Assembly: GCA_951406725.2 (NCBI GenBank)
Contig: OX597833.1
Location: 28,520,001 to 28,584,000, forward strand
Origin: Octopus vulgaris
Lineage: Eukaryota
DNA: 64,000 nucleotides
Direction: 5' to 3'
The position numbers and the translations under genes were made by a program. Under the pieces are notes generated by a model, which searched no databases, had not been told where the DNA came from, and was given only the letters and a program-made list of their open reading frames with translations. Shown piece by piece: positions 16,261 to 59,797 of the stretch. Positions within the stretch are counted from its first letter, which is position 1, and each line of letters opens with the position of its first letter.

Positions 16261-16826
16261 CTGAGATGAACAGTGGTTGGAGTAGATGCGAAATGCCGTT
16301 TCAAGGAAGAAGTGAGGGACCCACTATTCCACGTGGAGGGAGACCAAAGGGAACAGGAATAGTTTCTGCCAATCCGAGGTGTCATTGGATAGGCAGACTG
16401 AAAATTTTATTGCCACCCATGACTTATTTGATTTCCAAATCAAAGGCAAATGCATTTCTGATAATCCTTTATTAATCACGGTGTTTCTGAATTATATATG
16501 AGCATTGACATCGGCTTAAGATCTGTCAAAACAATTCCCCCAATTGGTAGTGTGAACCGGTATTTTATCTCCTTAAATCCAATTTTTTCCCTCCTCTTAA
16601 GATAACATGTTTGGTAGCTTCTTTCCTAGAAAAAGATCTTGTTTCTATTTCATTTACATTGATTATAAGTTGTGGGGAGGGTAGTTGCTTAATAATCTAG
16701 GGAAATCTTATAGATTCCTTGATATCAGCACTTGCAGCTGTAAAGGTTTTGCTATCATTCAAATTGGCTGGATCTGTCTTGTAGCTGTAAATGTTTCTAA
16801 GTTGTTTCCTTCTTTCACTGTTATTT

Positions 16827-17464
16827 ATGAGAAAAAAGATACCCTGTAGCCATAAACTGAGGGGTCACTCGTAAACAGAGCTGGATAACAAAACCGTTCC
16901 CTCTTTAGTGTCCACCCATAAATATGACCCTAGTATCGATCTATTACATTTCAATCTGTGTTAGGGTTAGGGTTGGGTTAGGGGTTATGGGTGGGGGGAA
17001 AGGTATCTTTTTTTCTTCAGAAATGTAAATAAACCCAATCTGTTTCTTAAACAAATATATAATATGTAATGTGTGTATCTGTGCAACAGAGAGGGAAATT
17101 AAAACTGCATATGTTGTGAACTTAGAATATGTGTTTATTAATAAAAGTTTAATAACGATAATTTTTTATTCATACGAACGTAATTGATATGAAATATGTC
17201 ATAAATAACAGTGACAAACTGAGTAGACACCGCCAGAAAATGTTACGGCAGAAATTGTATTCACCTCAATAGACGTCACTGATTGGTTGAAATTGCCGAA
17301 ATGCAAGAAATTAAACAACAAATAGCTTACAAACTACAGAATTTTCTCAAGAAAGCCAAGAGAAAAAGATGTTTTATGTAACACACTACCAGTATACGAA
17401 GTTTAAAAGTGTTTAGTTACAAAGAAATTATTTTAAAAATCTGCCGGTCAAAGTGAAAAGATCC
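16827..17464. mobile_element. Left-truncated Merlin-like TTAGGG-bearing MITE
   Basis: Right TIR ...ccggtcaaagtgaaaagatcc ending 17464; ttagggttagggttgggttagggg at ~16961; interior matches 19150-19290 inverted. Confidence 0.75.
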
Positions 17465-18415
17465 GGCCATTCTAATAATAATCGACAATCCATTTTTTGG
17501 TAGACTTCACCGTGTGCTTAGGGTCGTTATCCTGTTGTAAAACCCACCCTTCACAAAGCTGGAGCTTTTCTACAGAGTCCCATAAATTATTGTTCAAAAT
17601 ATTTTGGTACATCTCTGCATTCATTCTACCATCTATCACATGTAAATTGCCGGTACCATTTGCAGAGAAACACCCCCACACCATGATGTTGCCACCTCCA
17701 AACTTTATGGTAGGAATTGTGTTTTTCGGCAAATAGGCAGTACCATCTTTCCTCCAAACATGGCTACGCGAATTTCTTCCAAACAATTCAATTTTCGACT
17801 CGTCTGTCCATAGAACATTTTCCCAGAATGTATCAGATTTATCTTTATGTTCATAAACAAATTTTAAACAGGCATCTCTATGCCTTTTAGTCAACAGCGG
17901 AGTTTTTCTAGGAGAGCGTGACTTCAGTTCATTACTGATTGTTCATAGTGTAACACTAGTCCCTGAAGCTAACAAATCTTCTTGCAACTCCTTTCTGGTG
18001 ATCATTGCGTTTTTTTCGATTCTTCGCTTCATTTTTCTTAAAAATCTAGGGGAAATCTTGCATGGTGCACTGGATCTTATTCTGTTTTCAACAGTTCCCG
18101 ATTTTTTTATATCTTTGAATAAATGAAAATATGGTAGAAAATGGAATACAAAGGGTCTCTGATATTTCCCTGTAACTTTTACCTGCTTTCCACTGTTCAA
18201 TAATTAAGTTTTTAACTGTATTTGTATTTTCGCCATTATTACGATACTACTTTATGTTGTCTCAGTGCTGAATGAAGAAGCTAACGTTTTGACACTTAAA
18301 AATGACAACTGATAAGATTATTGGAACAAACGAGAAAGTTCTAGTAAAAAAATTATTTTAACAGTATTTTGTGGCATAGAAAATCATAAATTTATTCTGT
18401 ACGAATACTTTTTTC

Positions 18416-19525
18416 AGATCTTTTTGGTTTGAACGGCGTAACTAAACACTTTTAAACTTCGTATACTGGTAGAAAGCTGACTAGAAGAGAATGCATCCGA
18501 GCTTTGGTGTTGGAGAAGACTTTTACGGATTCCATGGACAGCGAGGCTTACCAATGGAGAAGTTCTTAAGCAGATCAGGCCAAAAATGTCGCTAGAAGCT
18601 AGAATCACCAAGCTTAGATTGGCATATTTCGGTCATATTATGTGGAGAAAATCCCTGGAGAAGGACATCATGCTCGGAATGGTCAGTGGCAAGAGAGGAA
18701 GAGGCCGACCAAGAACCCGCTGGCTTGACACCATCAAGTGTGATACCGGAATGGACATAGCCAATCTGAAAGAAGCGGCCCAGGATAGAACTGACTGGAG
18801 GACACTGATCCAACGAGTAACCAAGAGTCGACTTCAACTGAGCGGATAAGAGAGATACTGGTAGAATGTGTTTATAAAACATCTTTTTCTCTTGGCTTTC
18901 TTGAGAAAATTCTGTAGTTTGTAAGATATTTTCTTCAATTTTGGCAAGTTCAACTAATCAATGACGTCTATTGAGGTGAAAACATTATCTGCCGTAAAAT
19001 TTTCCGGCGGTGAAATATGAAAATGTCCCCCATTTAAGAAACAGATTAGGTTTATTTACATTTCTGAAGAAAAAAGATACCCTTCCCCCCACCCCTAACC
19101 CTAACCTAAATCCTAACCTTAACCCTAACCCAACCCTTAACCCTAACACAGATTGAAATGCAATAGATCGATACTAGGGTCATAATTATGGGTGGACACT
19201 AAAGAGGGAACGGTTTTGTTATCCAGCTCTGTTTACGAGTGACCCCTCAGTTTATGGCCACAGGGTATCTTTTTTCTCATAAAAAACAGGAACATTTTCG
19301 TATGACGCCGCCATAAAATGTTACGGCAAAATCGTTTTCACCTCAATAGACATCATTGATTGGTTGAAATTGCCGAAATGCAAGAAATTAAAGACCATAT
19401 ATCTTACAAACTACAGAATTTTCTCAAGATGTTTTATAAACACATTCTACCAGTATACAAAGTTTAAAATTTTTTAGTCACATAGAAATTATTTTAAAAA
19501 GCTGCCGTTCAAACCGAAAAGATCC
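18416..19525. mobile_element. Merlin-like TTAGGG-bearing MITE nested in the Tc1
   Basis: 8-bp TSD cttttttc (18408-18415 and 19526-19533); TIR agatctttttggtttgaacggc / gccgttcaaaccgaaaagatcc; degenerate (ccctaa)n 19093-19146. Confidence 0.85.
18475..18854 (+). mobile_element. 5'-truncated RTE (BovB-like) 3' fragment nested in the MITE
   Basis: ELWCWRRLLRIPWTAR...LAYFGHIMWRKSLEKDIMLG...RGRPRTRWLD; 12-bp TSD atactggtagaa (18463-18474 and 18855-18866). Confidence 0.9.
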
Positions 19526-20020: not shown

Positions 20021-22044
20021 ACTGTATGCAAATATAGTATTGGTATATCCCATTTATGTTCATTAGAAATTAAATAAATAAAGAATTTTGACATGTATGA
20101 ATATTTATTTCCCCTACTGTATATATGATTTTTATATGTCTGTTTTAGATTTAACTGATTTTTGTTTTCTATTTGTCCTTTGTAAATGTTATATTTATAT
20201 TGTATTACTTTTTATTTAAGTAGAATTTGGGCGGAGGGGGGGGTATTATCATTTTTTAGATTGCTTTATTTTGGCACCCCTTGTAGCTTTGCCATAATAA
20301 TATAACAGATAGGTTGATTGAAACAATTATATACCAAGGGAGCAATTCATCTTTTTTTCAGTGAAATTGTTTTGCGACAAAATTTCCTATGCTGCGGACT
20401 TTCCTACTGTCAAAAATCCTTGGGCGAATTTTCCTGCAGCAAACTTTACAGATACGTTAGTGTATGAATGTGTGTGTATGTGGTAACTAAACACGAACTT
20501 ACAAGGCATGTCCTAATTCCTCTAATCAAGTTATTCACCGTGTGTACTTTTCAATCAATTAGGAATTAGTAGTGATTATGAACAATGTCTCTGTGAACTA
20601 AATTTACTGAAAGAATAAATCTCGAATTGTGTGTGTGTGTAAATGTATTACAAATATATCAAGGGTTACCGATGTTGACAAATTGCAGATGAAATTACAC
20701 GTTATTTATTTGTTGTGTACATAGAAAATTATTACAATAGTTAAGAAGAAAACAGCTTTAATAGTTTGTCTAACTACCGATTCAGTCGTGTATTGTGTTA
20801 GGCTGGTAACTTATGCAAAAATCTTGGTTACAGGCACATTAATAAGTTGTAAATATGTATGTGCAAGAACATGTTTGGCTGCATGTGTGTATGTGACAGG
20901 TAGCTAACTGGTTAGTCATAGTAATAATAATACTTGGCTATTATTGTCGCTGCCATACTGATGGTGACGAAGAGGTAGCAAAAGAAAAAGGAAGGTTTTC
21001 GTATCTGTAGAATTGAAATGAGGTCTTGTTTCTTTGTGTTGAAAAGGCAAATAGCACTAAGCTGATTTGGCCAAGAGAAACTAGTAAATTGCATCATAGC
21101 AAAATTTCCCGTTATATCCCCCCACACACACACACTCACACATGTACAGAGTTCTTTAATTACTTAGTGTGTCAAAGTCCTTTGTGACGAGAATATTATA
21201 TGTCATTTGATTTTTAGATTAGTCCATCATAATACTGCATATACTATATACAAACAGGCAGGAAAAAAATTGCCTGGTTTTCCTTCACAGTGAATTCGAC
21301 TTGACAAATGAGTTTGTCCTACTTTTAATAATTAGTAGAGCATCAAGCATGCTTGTTAGAATTAGTAGCACTTCGTAATAAATCTCCCGTTGTATTTAGC
21401 TTTGGTTCTTTACGTATGTTCTGCGTTCAAATCCTGCCGATATCTACTTTGCCTTTCAGTTATTCTGGGTCCACGGTGTAGTTCTGTGGTAAGAAGCTTG
21501 CTTCCCAACCACATGGTTCCGGGTTCAGTCCCACTGAGTGGCACCTTGATTTCAGTCCAACCAAAACCTTGTGAATGGATTTGGTAGACGGAAGCTGAAA
21601 GAAGTCCATCGTGTGTGTGTGTTTGCCCGCCGTTTGTTGGTGTGTTAACGTACTCGTGACCTAGCGGTTCAACAAAAATAACTGATAAAATAAGTAGAAG
21701 ATAAAAGATACAAGTTGAATATTAGGGTCGATTTAACTGAAAGAACCCCTCTATAAAAACAAAATCTTGCACAAAATAGGCTTGCTTCCCAACAACAGAG
21801 TTCGGTTCCACTGCATGGTACTTTGAGCATGTATATTCTACTATAGCCTCGGGTTGGCCAAAGCTTTGTGATTTGGTAGATGGAAACTGAAAGAAGCCCG
21901 TCGTATATATATATACATATATATATATGTGTGTGTGTGTGAGACCACCGGTTGACAACTAGTACTGCTGTTACAGTTCTATATTTAAGAGATGAGAAAT
22001 TATTTACATTTGATGGATATTTGTCCTCATCTTGTTTGTTGTTA

Positions 22045-22088
22045 ACACAACGTTTCGGCTGATATACCCTCCAGCCTTCTTCAGGTGT
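22045..22088 (-). ncRNA. Minimal type-I hammerhead ribozyme in PLE pLTR
   Basis: acac-CTGAAGA-a-ggctg/cagcc-GAAA-cg-TT-gtgt. Confidence 0.8.
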
Positions 22089-22156
22089 CTTGGGGAAATT
22101 TCGAACCTGGGTTCTCATTCCTCAGGTATTTTTGATGTTATTATTATTATTATTAC

Positions 22157-22212
<56 letters not shown>

Positions 22213-22662
22213 TCACTGCTTGGAATCAAACTCGGAATTTTGGGGTTAGTAGCCCGCACTCTTAACCACTATGCCATATGTCAATGAGCAATTATGGAGT
22301 GAATTTTAGGGCTTATAAATCTAATCTTTTTCTATCCTTCCTTAATACCAGTTCCCATATTCTGCTCATATCTGCACTCAGTCTGCTTAGGAGGTTGTTG
22401 TGTCCTAGCATATGTGCTGCTTCTTTTAGTTTTCGTATTTTCCAGTGGTATTCTCTGTCTATTATTTTAACTTCATCCCACAGGGGGAAGTGGCCTCCAT
22501 TTTCCCATACTTGATCAGCTATACCCGATTTATCAATATCTCTCTTTGATTTCGTTATTTAATTGATGTTTTTTCCAACGGTTGTAATGGATCCTCTCAC
22601 GGACGAGGGAATGTCCTACCCTTTCCGCTACTCTTTTAGCTTCAGATAATGAATCACTATCA

Positions 22663-23256
22663 GTGATACAAGAAAAACTAGTGGCAGACACCCATGTAAA
22701 AGAACGCACTATTATACCAATAAGAAACTTGATGGAAATGTTGACCTTCTGTGTAGAAACTACCTACTTCACTATGGACACTGATATATATCGACAGAAG
22801 AAGGGTTTAGCTATGGGTTCACTATTATCACTGGTAATAGCCAATATATACATGGAATACTTTGAGAATTTGGCTTTAGGATCAACACCACTAATACCAA
22901 CACTATGGCTACAATATGTTGATGACACCTTCATACTCTGGCCCCACCAGGAAGATGTCCAAGTGCTGTTAGATCATGTGAACTCAATAAAGCCATCCAT
23001 ACAGTTCACAATGGGAAAGGTAAAAGACAATCAACTGGCATTCCTGCACGTATTAATAACACGCACCAAGTATAGATTCAGGACACCTGTATACCGCAAG
23101 CCGACCTTCACTGGACAATACCTCAACTTCAATTCCCACCATCCATACAGTGTAAAGAGAGGGATTGCTCAGTGCCTAAAACATCGTGCAAAGAATATAA
23201 GTAGCGATCGTGATACACACCATGAAGAGATGATCAAGCTCAGTAACGATCTGTAA
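22663..23256 (+). pseudogene. PLE reverse transcriptase fragment
   Basis: 197-aa ORF with PLE RT motifs; truncated and followed by an internal deletion. Confidence 0.85.
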
Positions 23257-23504
23257 AGCAACAACTACCTCAAAAGTATACTATCCTCCTTAGCAGACTG
23301 AGTGCAGATATGAGCAGCATATGGGAATTGGTATTAAGGATGGATCGAAAAATATTAGATTTATAAGCACTAAAATTCACTCCATAATTGCTCACAGAGC
23401 AGAGTGGTTAAAAGCACAGGCTACTAACCCCAAGATTCCGAGTTCGATTCCAAGCAGTGACCTGAACAATAATAATAATAACCCAGGTTCGAAATTTCCC
23501 CAAG

Positions 23505-23548
23505 ACACCTGAAGAAGGCTGGAGGGTATATCAGCCGAAATGTTGTGT
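23505..23548 (+). ncRNA. Second copy of the minimal pLTR hammerhead
   Basis: acac-CTGAAGA-a-ggctg/cagcc-GAAA-tg-TT-gtgt (CG>TG change in stem III). Confidence 0.7.
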
Positions 23549-24659
23549 TAACAACAACAAGATGAGGACAAATATCCATTGAATGTAAATAATGTAGTGC
23601 TGGTGTGTTTGCGTCCCCGTAACTTGGCAGTTTGACAAAAGAGACTGATAAAGTACGTGCTGGGATCAATTCACTGAACTAAAAATTCAAGACGGTGCCC
23701 CAGCATGGTCACTATCTACTGACTGAAATGAGTAAAGTATTAGAAGTCAATGATTACCAGAGTATGAAAGCAGTTTGAATGATCAATAAAAAGGATTACT
23801 AGGCTATCAATACAGTAATGGTGATCAAAAAGATGTGTTGTCATATATGTTTAATAACCAATACAATTAATCATGTTGCGAAATTAATAGCGATGTATTT
23901 AATCTCTCATGGTTGTATTTTCATTAACTTACAATGATAAATTAACTGTATTTAATGACTCGGTTCTAACACACTTGATCTATGATCAAAGGCATTCCAG
24001 ATGAGATCATCCTGTCTTGTTCTTTCTTGCTTTCTTTTTTCCCTTTTTTTTACATGAACAATATAGTCTGATGTGTCCCTCTTTTTATAAGAGCGTAGAG
24101 TCTCATTTCTTGCAAGTCAAGTGGCCACAAAGATTCCATGGCTCACTTGTGTGGTTTAATCTACTGCTTTTGAACAAATAGTTCATTTCAGAAGACAGAT
24201 TTGTCATTTTCTCGATGTTATCTTTATAGCCATAAATATGTAGTTCATCACAAACTATAATGATGCTCCAACCATAGAAATACTTGACTTGGTTGGGTTA
24301 TGAAAAATCAAAAAAAAGTTTACAATTTCCTGTAAACGCTGTACATTTATATTATTTATATCGACATTATATTTTAATCAGTTTGATCTCCAGTGGTCAT
24401 CAGGTTCATGGACATGTACTCTCTGACTGGATTCAAATTAGGAACTCTAATATAGTTATGCTTTGAGCCACTAAACTACAACTTGTGTTCAAAGTCAATT
24501 ATTTTATTTATCATTTTTATAATTATTCCTAATTCTTAATCTGAAAATCGCCAAGAAAAGAAAGTAGAGTGCATCCTTAGTGATGTCTTAGCCTCCAAAC
24601 AATCGACTTTCCTGAATGAAAGAGCAGGTTCTCCCAGACAAGTGACTATGATATCAAAA

Positions 24660-25400: not shown

Positions 25401-27339
25401 CCTATTTCATATCAACAATCTCTGTATTACATAGTCATTATTTCTGCATGAGCAACTTGTCTCAGAACTAATTTTGCAACAATTAACTAAAATCTGTTTT
25501 ACGCACACATGTAAAATGACTCTCACTTCTGAGACAGTAAAATGTGATTTGAAGGAGTTTTGCTGCTCTTTCGAATTGGTTGATAACCACATAAAGGCTT
25601 CTTCATTGCTGTTGTCAAGGTGAACATCCAACTGTTCTGATAAACTAGTTGGATGTTGTGAATTCCTAAGCATTTCAGCTGCCAGGTAAACATGCTTAAC
25701 CCAAAACTGCTGCTTTATCAATAAGATCAGCTTCAGGAAGTCATGTTTTTGACAAAAGACAGTCATATATATATATATTGATAAAAATGGTAAGACAGCA
25801 AAAGAATGAAAGAGACCTCGATATTATGTAAATAGAGGAATTTATCTGTAAATGTAATATGTGACAATTATTCAGTAGCTGGAGTTTTATCATGGATACC
25901 AAATAATTGTCACATATTACATTTACAGATATATATATATATATATCTGTAAATGTAATATGTGACAATTATTCGGTATCCATGATCATTGAGAAATAGT
26001 CACTCATTCTAGTCTCAACACATACCTGCACAATAGATACAAGAACATTCAGAAACCTTTGTGGAGCAGATACTGACATCAGATGGACTAGATACACTAA
26101 TTTAGTCTCATTGTCTATGTTTTAAAACTATGATGTGAATGCTTCTCCATTTCTGGTAGAAGAAACACATGCTTAGTGACCATCATGGTCACTGCATCTT
26201 CTCAGCTTTTGTCTACATCATTATGATTAAGTTTAGCCAAATTATTTTCCTAGAGAAAAACCCTCTCATTCGTTCTAGCTAACTGTTACCTCTTCATATC
26301 ACCCAAGTTTTACAAGCCAATAGGATAATATTTATGTGGTTGCTTGACCAGGATGAAATAGCAACCAAATCTTTTAAATCATATCTTAGTGTTTGGAAAA
26401 GAGACTACTTCAGTGTACATATGGAAAGGCTTGAATGCCTTTGAACATAGGTTTTCTTTGTCAGTGCCACTCTGAGGTTAGACACAGTAACAACAGCAAC
26501 AGTAACACCATTTTAAATGTATTACATCAAATTTCGAAGTGGATGGCTCTATGAAAGAGACATGAATCTCGTAAGTAAACATAAGTAAACTTCCTGAGTT
26601 CTCTTTTATTCTGGAAACTTTTATAATGTATCCAACATCTTTTAGTAAAAGCTCGAACAACAACATCCATGCAACCACAACACAACTATATTTCCACTGA
26701 CTGAAAGCAAAAATCATGTAGTGCCAGATAATAAGTTCACCACAAACCACAACCATGTCCTTAAACATCTTCCCATCCAATCCACCATGACGCAAACCCA
26801 CAACTACAATCTTTCATGTGGTACCCACAGAACGATGGTGAAAGAGTTAGTAGGGTCTGCGATGTGAAGGCTCGTTTTTTGGCTCCTTTACGTAGGGATT
26901 CAGAGAGGGAGTGGGATGGTGGGAAACTCGAAACTAGTATTTGACAGATACTTGTATTAATCAACCCTGAAGTGATAATTGGCAAAGTTGACATTAGCGG
27001 GATTCAAATTCAGATCACAGGGTAGGAACATACACTGTAACTCTGCCTTTCACCACTACACTAAACCAATTCAGCACCCATTAAGTCAAAATATTACACT
27101 ACCATCACCTATTTCTACAACTACCATTAACCACCACTACTATTACTTCTACTATCTGAAATAAAGTAGAGACAGTCACAGCTATAATGCCTTTGATTAT
27201 AGGCCAGACTCAATGGGGTCTTAATAATTAATACTAAGATCAACAAAACTGTAACAGCAGTACTAAATATACACACACTATTACCACCACCAACACCACT
27301 GAAAACATGAACAAGGAACCAACAATGAAACTTCTACCT

Positions 27340-28558: not shown

Positions 28559-28789
28559 ATACGGGGGATATTAGTGAAATACTTACTCATACCCATGGAA
28601 AAATTCAAGCACTAAGTACCCCAAATATATCCAAAATAGAAAAACTTTGGCACATCTCGAGACACGTGTGATTCGAACTAGAAACTTTCACAGAGTGAGA
28701 GAATCCGGAAGTGAACACTATTCAATTTATAACTAATGTAGGATAAAAAATTTTTCGGGAAAATATATATATATATATATATATATATA

Positions 28790-28947
28790 CTTTATTTAAA
28801 GCAGCAGAAAATTCAACAAAATCTGTTACTCTGAGTTTCTCGTTGCCGTTCATCAGACAGTTTTTGCTAGCAAAAACTGTCTGATGAACGACAACGAGAA
28901 ACTCAGAGTAATAGATTTTGCTGAATTTTCTGCTGCTTTAAATAAAG
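28790..28947. ncRNA. 158-bp palindrome with one hammerhead motif per arm on opposite strands
   Basis: Centre gctagc 28866-28871; ctgt-CTGATGA-acg(g/a)caacga-GAAA-ctc.a.gag-TA-a(c/t)ag in each arm. Confidence 0.75.
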
Positions 28948-29077
28948 CATATTACTCTACCACTGGTATTTGAGTACTCTTTTTCCACCTTGTTTCACAT
29001 TTATGTGTTTACTCCGGTATATATATATATATATATATATATAAATGAATAAGTAACAACAGATAGATGACGTGTCA

Positions 29078-29163
29078 ATTCACTACAGCTGTTTCCAACA
29101 AAATTTTAATTTATGAATGGAGACATTACTTCATTAGAAAAAAAACGTTTTTATCAGGTGAAT
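29078..29163 (-). ncRNA. Type-I hammerhead motif (core CUGAUAA) within inverted repeat 29047-29302
   Basis: attcac-CTGATAA-long stem/loop II-GAAA-cagctg-TA-gtgaat; perfect 6-bp stem I. Confidence 0.65.
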
Positions 29164-29639
29164 ACATGAACCATAACATTTAAAAACATTCAAAATCCAA
29201 CTAGTTTTTTTTTCTAATGATGTAATGTCTTTATTAATCAATTAAAAATTTGTTGGAAACAGTTGTAGTGAATTGACACATCATCCATCTGTTGTTAGTT
29301 ATTATATTATTATATATGTTTTGTAGTTTTAATTTTGGTTAAGAAATGAAACAATTGTAGATGAAGATGTTAATTAATTACTTAATTTGACCCATTAGAT
29401 CTCTCCATTTTCAAACTTAATAATATTTGATATTTTATATAATATATTCATTGAAGAAATATCTCTTCAAAATACAATATATTGAACCAGTGTATCTCTT
29501 ATTAGAATCTTGAATAAAAATATCCCTATAAGAGGTCTAAATATCTTCATAGTGATCATACACACACACACACATATATATATATCAGTCTTCCTACCAT
29601 CAGTTCAGTAATCAGAGAAAGAACATATTCTTTTCTTTT

Positions 29640-59480: not shown

Positions 59481-59517
59481 GGTGGTGGTAGTGGTGGTGG
59501 TGGTGATGATGATGATG

Positions 59518-59616
59518 TAAACTACATAAGTTGACTGTGACTTTGAACTTTTGCACTGATTGGTAGGCTACCAATCAGTGCAAAAGTTCAAAGTCATAGT
59601 CAACTTGTGTAGTTTA
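59518..59616. repeat. 99-bp near-perfect palindrome
   Basis: 49-bp arms, 1-nt centre at 59567, two mismatches. Confidence 0.9.
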
Positions 59617-59797
59617 TAAGCCTCATGCAAAGCACTGCACAGGGTTCCCTACAGACATAACCATCTCACAAACAGAAATAATGGTGGCGCCCCAGCATAG
59701 CTGCAAGCCATGCTGGGGCACCACTCCTGGGCTGAAACTAGAATCAGATTATAACTAAAAAATTTAAATTCTAAAATGACCAAAAACATAGAATATA

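Follow-up and report, generated by a model that had tools for sequence, protein, structure and literature searches.

The window insertion and its parts

The window, that is the whole stretch of 64,000 nucleotides analysed, carries at 21974-23596 one rearranged inverted copy of an abundant Penelope/Poseidon-type element. This copy is dead, and its span is slightly wider than the 22045..23548 given in the first-pass annotation. Its two inverted arms are 89-95% alike, and in each of them an ORF stop, a tRNA-like head, an AAT tract and a minimal type I hammerhead are found. The minus-strand part is laid out as tail, hammerhead, ATG, (AAT)n, head, ORF end and jumped N-terminal piece, while in the plus-strand part a reverse transcriptase (RT) fragment is followed by a jump to the ORF end, a second head and a second hammerhead. 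The features are the following (here and below, statements drawn from the literature refer to the available parts of the cited texts).

21960..21971, plus strand: candidate target-site duplication, left copy (12 bp, 10 of 12 alike with 23595-23606), read from the sequence
21974..22043, minus strand: left arm, N-terminal ORF codons past the hammerhead, including the optional PLE tail
22044..22089, minus strand: left-arm minimal type I hammerhead, inside the ORF, with an intact core, an unbroken stem III palindrome and a predicted cleavage site between 22049 and 22048; its architecture matches that in PMC4209133
22098..22107, minus strand: ORF codons 4-7, formerly taken for a second B box, without C61
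22116..22118, minus strand: ATG of the PLE ORF (start of the next tandem unit); its frame enters the ORF in copy L270 and agrees with relative P0003
22141..22208, minus strand: (AAT)n tract between head and 5' UTR, of a length that differs from copy to copy
22209..22283, minus strand: left-arm head of tRNA origin, with +1 at 22283, an undamaged A box (22276-22266) and a C56>T change in the B box (22232-22222)
22284..22298, minus strand: leader that pairs with the first 9 nt of the head as a quasi-palindrome in the family, degraded in the window copy; copy 5' ends pile up in this zone
22313..22542, minus strand: ORF 3' end (putative endonuclease C-terminus), stop at 22315-22313
22540..22642, minus strand: N-terminal ORF fragment joined via a template jump, reaching the inversion junction
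22650..23286, plus strand: reverse-transcriptase fragment (PF00078, E=1.6e-6, slightly below the curated cut-off)
23285..23395, plus strand: right arm, ORF end and short spacer, stop at 23364-23366
23396..23464, plus strand: right-arm head of tRNA origin, with a 6-nt deletion disrupting the A box and an undamaged B box (23441-23451)
23465..23479, plus strand: short AAT tract of the right arm, behind which a 51-nt deletion takes the 5' UTR and ATG
23504..23549, plus strand: right-arm hammerhead, stem III palindrome broken by C>T at 23541
23550..23596, plus strand: right-arm 3' end, without tail
23595..23606, plus strand: candidate target-site duplication, right copy, read from the sequence

The first-pass annotation had described the same order of parts for both pLTR copies, and stop, tRNA-like head, AAT tract and hammerhead were indeed recovered in each arm; the second B-box-like motif placed before the hammerhead was not. 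This motif, ggttcgaaat, is without the invariant C61 and belongs to the coding sequence. The ATG located 23 nt past the AAT tract opens a frame through hammerhead and tail, the tail continues into the ORF in copies L270, L293 and L306, and the N-terminus of the full-length relative P0003 matches the family ORF (identity 55%); the matching frame and the P0003 N-terminus thus identify the motif as codons 4-7 and place the hammerhead inside the ORF. The A and B boxes quoted earlier are canonical in the family majority, but those two had been read from different arms, A on the left and B on the right, and neither window copy has both intact. The spacer does vary in length among copies as claimed, although the short right-hand one reflects the 51-nt deletion by which the ATG was lost as well. 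The left-arm linker seemed to offer a second hammerhead core, which was rejected as a private change of the window copy, absent from the family.

Elsewhere in the window, SINE-like repeats lie around the insertion (21470-21960 and 23598-23750), one of them apparently split by it. At 16818-19289, long inverted repeats flank a Tc1/mariner-like frame (17472-17942); their arms hold TTAGGG-like arrays, and an RTE-like fragment is inserted there. Near-perfect DNA palindromes with arms of about 49-105 nt are located at 25889-25986, 28785-28952, 29041-29310 and 59513-59622, and the Rfam miRNA matches at these four fall under the gathering scores.

The Penelope family and its tRNA-derived head

A 31-nt hammerhead pattern has 5003 exact matches in the genome and its reversed control none, and 40 evenly spaced 10-kb stretches of the 2.8-Gb genome held 6 clusters; as a rough estimate, the family comprises tens of thousands of loci. 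Near-identical sequence was present in sequencing runs under four organism codes, with no RNA run among those listed. The unit is composed of head, (AAT)n, a 23-nt UTR, the ATG, an ORF of about 850 codons that includes the hammerhead, the stop and 29 nt leading to the next head. The pLTR thus has the head at its 5' end, ahead of the ATG of the following unit. None of the loci retrieved proved to be a complete pLTR-ORF-pLTR copy. The family hammerhead has a conserved core, stems I and II and, in the left arm, a palindromic stem III, and its self-cleavage is a prediction.

The single ORF is related to PLE proteins and has an RT domain (PF00078 match). Its protein homologues, the best at 68% identity, carry PF00078, PF28514 and PF26215, with PF01541 present in a few of them; a Pfam search of the ORF itself gave no GIY-YIG match, and a PDB search with the protein returned weak RT matches. 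Near the C-terminus a motif is visible which we take to be GIY-YIG-like. Further traits of EN+ Penelope-like elements are present, namely a pLTR overlapping the ORF start, inverted arms and an optional tail. The family appears to be a Penelope/Poseidon-type EN+ PLE, the protein tree built for it holding no named PLE references.

The tRNA-derived A/B-box head at the start of this pLTR is a real and family-wide feature. In the family majority, a complete A box and B box stand at tRNA spacing (G53 at position 53), that is at the spacing of a type 2 Pol III promoter, which neither window copy shows alone. When compared with 30 tRNA loci of the genome, the majority head reached a best score of 62, to be set against 27.7 +/- 4.9 (maximum 46) for 300 shuffles; the best match was a tRNA-Arg, in a sample with only 7 amino-acid types. 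Three SINE-like head clusters of the genome score 56-61 against the majority head, which is a tRNA-like level. On the other hand, the head does not fold as a tRNA: it has neither the cloverleaf nor the acceptor stem by which a tRNA gene is recognised, its folding z-scores are +0.5 and -0.6, ARAGORN found 0 tRNA genes in the window, and Rfam gave no tRNA match and no hammerhead match.

The distribution of the head was followed in 30 loci picked on the 95 nt upstream of it, the window's own copy among them. An A- or B-box match (at most 2 mismatches) is kept in all 30, both boxes in 22 and both strictly in 7. In another set of loci, selected by the head itself, the 29 other than the window's all contain the PLE 3' part as well. 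The head is fixed across the family and older than the window insertion; both the proposal that the module predates this insertion and the suggestion to look for it in the family consensus are borne out by the 30 loci. The expectation that the boxes would be more conserved than their flanks, on the contrary, found no support, since identity among copies is 96.0 and 96.8% in the boxes and 95.3% elsewhere, which is no difference. This test is weak and says little because dead copies decay neutrally.

At one locus (L012:364-1574), a pLTR with head precedes a retrozyme-like array in which five headless units (AAT, linker, hammerhead, tail), each about 190 nt long, stand in tandem; arrays of at least 4 units occur in 1 of the 30 head-selected loci. 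The genome also holds two other, much younger PLE-like families (L469-L471, L477 and L479; L472-L474 and L478), with frames of about 1000-1200 and 775 codons respectively, copies of the first being 95-99% alike in protein. These two families have T-rich 3' repeats and no A/B head. Similarly, no A/B pattern was detected near 79 metagenome PLE loci (29-48% identity, many of them truncated), and the 52 of them that were checked have no tRNA gene.

Copy ends, terminators and RNA reads

In order to locate the 5' ends of copies, the first 100 of the 5003 hammerhead matches were used, all on one contig (C1); re-anchoring left 96 matches in 84 clusters, with 1 overlapping locus dropped and 8 loci without anchor match. 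The head is reached by 60 of the 84 clusters. Among these, 33 end at -10..+9 of the tRNA +1 and 45 at -20..+19, while 4 end at +20..+75, none at -21..-258, and 11 pass the head, 5 of the latter coming from three loci that are apparent duplicates of one insertion (99% alike where compared). The end density at the head is 0.041 per nt, about 19x the background truncation rate of 0.0022 per nt measured over the ORF (27 ends, 12,422 nt). Near the head, more copies end at +1 (8) than at any other single position, many ends fall at -7..-3, and some copies in other samples end at -30..-55. In a separate set of 30 loci picked by their tail-ORF junction, 8 reach the head, with ends at -8, -7, -6, -2, +3, +16, +31 and -53, hence 5 of 8 at -8..+3.

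The form met most often is a solo pLTR whose 5' end lies at the head (45/84), and an inverted arm is present in 53/84 clusters. Head-starting copies that run 200-930 nt into the ORF also exist: in L430-L432, unique flank is followed by head, ATG, hammerhead and ORF in one piece, and in L433 an ORF is joined straight to head position -6 with no fold-back. These copies favour one branch of the original proposal, namely that the module drives the next tandem unit, since they all begin with the head and part of them continue past ATG and hammerhead into the ORF. At the other side, the 3' ends peak at about 47-59 and 79-84 nt past the predicted hammerhead cut, matching the two internal RT start sites and optional tail of PMC11167929, and not one of the 96 copies has its end within 5 nt of the cut, 91 of them reaching at least 40 nt beyond it. 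Self-cleavage was consequently rejected as the 3' end of the mobile RNA, and with it the 150-230-nt self-cleaved RNA put forward in the first-pass annotation; a non-LTR retrozyme or SM-alpha type of element was discarded on the same count and on the rarity of arrays. Solo copies of head and hammerhead, which it had suggested searching for, do exist. They are, however, solo pLTRs of the same family, given that 63 short and 55 long copies have the same polymorphisms with no diagnostic column at p<0.01, so neither a separate tRNA-SINE subfamily nor a distinct SINE/retrozyme hybrid can be recognised.

Three smaller patterns were noted among the ends. A minor 5' pile-up (5/84; L133, L154, L159, L191 and L194) lies at codons 4-6, beside a small linker hairpin. 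In L251, L252, L266, L316 and the window at 22540-22642, an end or strand switch is found near the strongest ORF hairpin, about 2200 nt upstream of the head. Finally, L430, L431, L432, L434, L436 and L437 begin within the pLTR and extend 200-1250 nt into the ORF, which implies that RT can also start well past its two usual sites.

The sense strand of the unit has no family-level TTTT, the Pol III terminator. In 29 copies with at least 1400 aligned nt, 22 runs of four or more T were counted against 110 expected, and 0 runs of five or more against 25; no T4 column exceeds 12% of copies, and A4+ runs are at their expected number. From head to tail, the short unit contains no T4 at all. For the majority-state ORF (790 codons), 0 TTTT were found for 2.7 expected by permutation of its own codons (P=0.034), with a coverage of 3-13 copies only over the first 400 nt. 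By comparison, the 79 metagenome-contig PLE loci hold 491 T4+ runs for 343 expected, all 17 intact control PLE ORFs from other animals (at least 650 codons, 4 near-duplicate loci dropped) have 4-21 each, and the two other PLE-like families of the genome are close to expectation (7 vs 8.2 and 4 vs 5.3). Among control segments, 3 of 51 are also T4-free over about 1.65 kb, yet have T4 elsewhere in the unit. The depletion is known from one family, at the P value given.

Three raw RNA-seq runs of one coded organism were consulted, about 6% of each run being read from libraries poorly suited to the question. Family reads are plentiful and about equal in both directions; no discrete transcript start was seen in the three runs, and 75-80% of family reads continue into dissimilar sequence. 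The head start is where the loose ends and fold-back joints of these reads cluster. The pattern looks like that of copies embedded in host transcripts, and it neither shows nor excludes a Pol III RNA.

The head as a candidate promoter, compared with known elements

Considering its sequence, the copies that begin at it and the lack of TTTT in the sense strand, the tRNA-derived head at the 5' end of the pLTR probably serves as the element's internal Pol III promoter. TFIIIC would bind its A and B boxes, RNA would start about 6 nt before, or at, the tRNA +1, and Pol III, meeting no terminator within the unit, would proceed into flanking DNA before stopping. The element's RT would then initiate internally at two sites immediately past the hammerhead, which has been demonstrated for anole Poseidon, and extend the cDNA up to the 5' end of the RNA; starts in the 5' pLTR would yield the many SINE-looking solo pLTRs and starts in the 3' pLTR the ORF-bearing copies, while a cDNA end that snaps back or switches template would give inverted arms such as those in the window. 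The head itself probably originated as a tRNA or SINE retrocopy with an AAT tail, inserted just behind the stop codon. Several observations speak against a Pol III role of the head, among them the following: no RNA start was found in the RNA-seq runs, the pile-up coincides with a hairpin, and the boxes are not extra-conserved among copies.

The last two of these fit an inert tRNA or SINE fossil, with a quasi-palindrome at -16..+9 that stalls RT or self-primes the cDNA and Pol II transcribing from elsewhere. The quasi-palindrome (-9.7 kcal/mol) lies at the pile-up and is the second strongest 30-nt window of the unit, several of the numerous clusters with an inverted arm fold back at it, and PMC3846280 describes palindromes at pLTR 5' ends and reads those at inverted junctions as self-priming. 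Hairpins do stop RT somewhat, as the strongest one of the ORF (-14.7, near -2200) collects 5 of 11 ends in 75 nt in a biased sample. This stronger hairpin, however, stops copies at about 0.008 per nt, roughly 5x less than the head; the ends at the head lie at the apex and 5' side of the palindrome instead of its 3' base; and this spot is also where non-inverted copies and direct template jumps terminate. The missing TTTT is also left unexplained, and such a fossil is in our judgment unlikely. A Pol III transcript confined to solo or 3' pLTRs, giving a short SINE-like RNA mobilised in trans by the PLE protein, with the protein made from Pol II read-through RNA and the lack of TTTT due to chance, is more improbable still. 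It would agree with head-starting solo pLTRs being the commonest form, with the absence of T4 from the short unit and with the established fact that Pol III RNAs are uncapped and usually short (PMC10886601), but it is at odds with the copies extending from the head 200-930 nt into the ORF, with the polymorphisms common to short and long copies and with a whole ORF devoid of T4.

An RNA 5' end could also be made at the head by other means, either Pol II initiation at a SINE-derived head or an RNase P cut at the tRNA +1. The sole tested Penelope promoter is indeed of Pol II type, internal and with an intron (PMC8557442), and the most frequent single end falls precisely at +1. Nevertheless, acceptor stem and cloverleaf are absent, the many ends at -7..-3 precede an RNase P site and the lack of TTTT remains unaccounted for, making this origin very improbable.

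A bolder form of the Pol III reading can be put forward as a tentative and rather doubtful extension: a coding PLE wholly transcribed by Pol III, which exchanged its promoter for a captured tRNA head, had every TTTT purged from its 2.7-kb unit, made its protein from uncapped RNA, perhaps aided by the hammerhead near the beginning of the ORF, and shed tens of thousands of SINE-like solo pLTRs as run-off cDNAs. Self-cleavage drives cap-independent translation in viral RNAs (PMC13725137), and by analogy this is a possible route to the PLE protein, although the ATG lies upstream of the cut. If true, a 2.5-kb ORF could stay free of Pol III terminators and be translated from Pol III RNA, and a direct path would lead from an autonomous PLE to SINE-like repeats. 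The 5' ends of solo pLTRs would furthermore map the RNA start, offering a genomic read-out of the PLE cycle. Neither a tRNA-headed pLTR nor a Pol III-transcribed PLE was found in the literature covered; Repbase, Dfam, most subscription journals and supplements were outside this coverage and may list the family's consensus.

In its general organization, the octopus family is like anole PAc (PMC11167929) and Adineta Pen2/Pen3 (PMC3846280), with a single RT ORF (C-terminal GIY-YIG in those elements, a candidate motif of this kind in the octopus one), a pLTR overlapping the ORF start, a minimal hammerhead in the first codons, two 3' ends with an optional tail, inverted arms and a palindrome at the pLTR 5' end. 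For anole Poseidon, RT starts internally at two sites, the hammerhead is in the ORF and cleavage is unnecessary for insertion in vitro (PMC11167929). A downstream PLE's start site sits in the upstream pLTR, which holds its promoter (PMC6765202). The promoters described for known Penelope/Poseidon PLEs consist of Pol II-type motifs or are linked to an intron, with no tRNA head reported in the available parts of these texts, and the control PLEs examined here differ from the octopus family in having T4 runs and no A/B head.

Hammerhead-bearing repeats offer a second comparison. Schistosome SINE-like repeats combine a Pol III promoter with a hammerhead (PMC6765202), and SM-alpha resembles the octopus unit in the succession of Pol III promoter and type I hammerhead and in the upstream unit transcribing the next (PMC6765202, PMC8490949); it differs in being non-coding and released from multimers by cleavage, whereas none of the 96 octopus copies ends at the cut and the octopus unit continues into an ORF. 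Animal non-LTR retrozymes (PMC7229834; bioRxiv 10.64898/2026.07.22.740005) likewise have pLTR-related units and type I hammerheads, recalling the few tandem octopus pLTR arrays such as that of L012, but most octopus copies are dispersed single or inverted pLTRs, and the word 'tRNA' is absent from the main text of the bioRxiv report.

Among mobile elements, the known users of Pol III promoters are short non-coding passengers, namely SINEs, TRIMp3 and SM-alpha. The TRIMp3 elements (Cassandra, Helenus and Ajax; PMC10886601) have, like the octopus pLTR, a small-RNA-derived Pol III promoter in a terminal repeat with no functional tRNA fold, a promoter thought to come from a SINE insertion; they are however short, non-coding and moved by LTR retrotransposons, while the octopus repeat is a pLTR whose element encodes its own protein. 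The octopus copies resemble tRNA-derived SINEs in the tRNA spacing of their A and B boxes, in having their 5' ends at the head, in lacking internal T4 and in a 3' part common with an autonomous partner, but their short and long forms are without diagnostic sequence, and the head belongs to the autonomous element itself.
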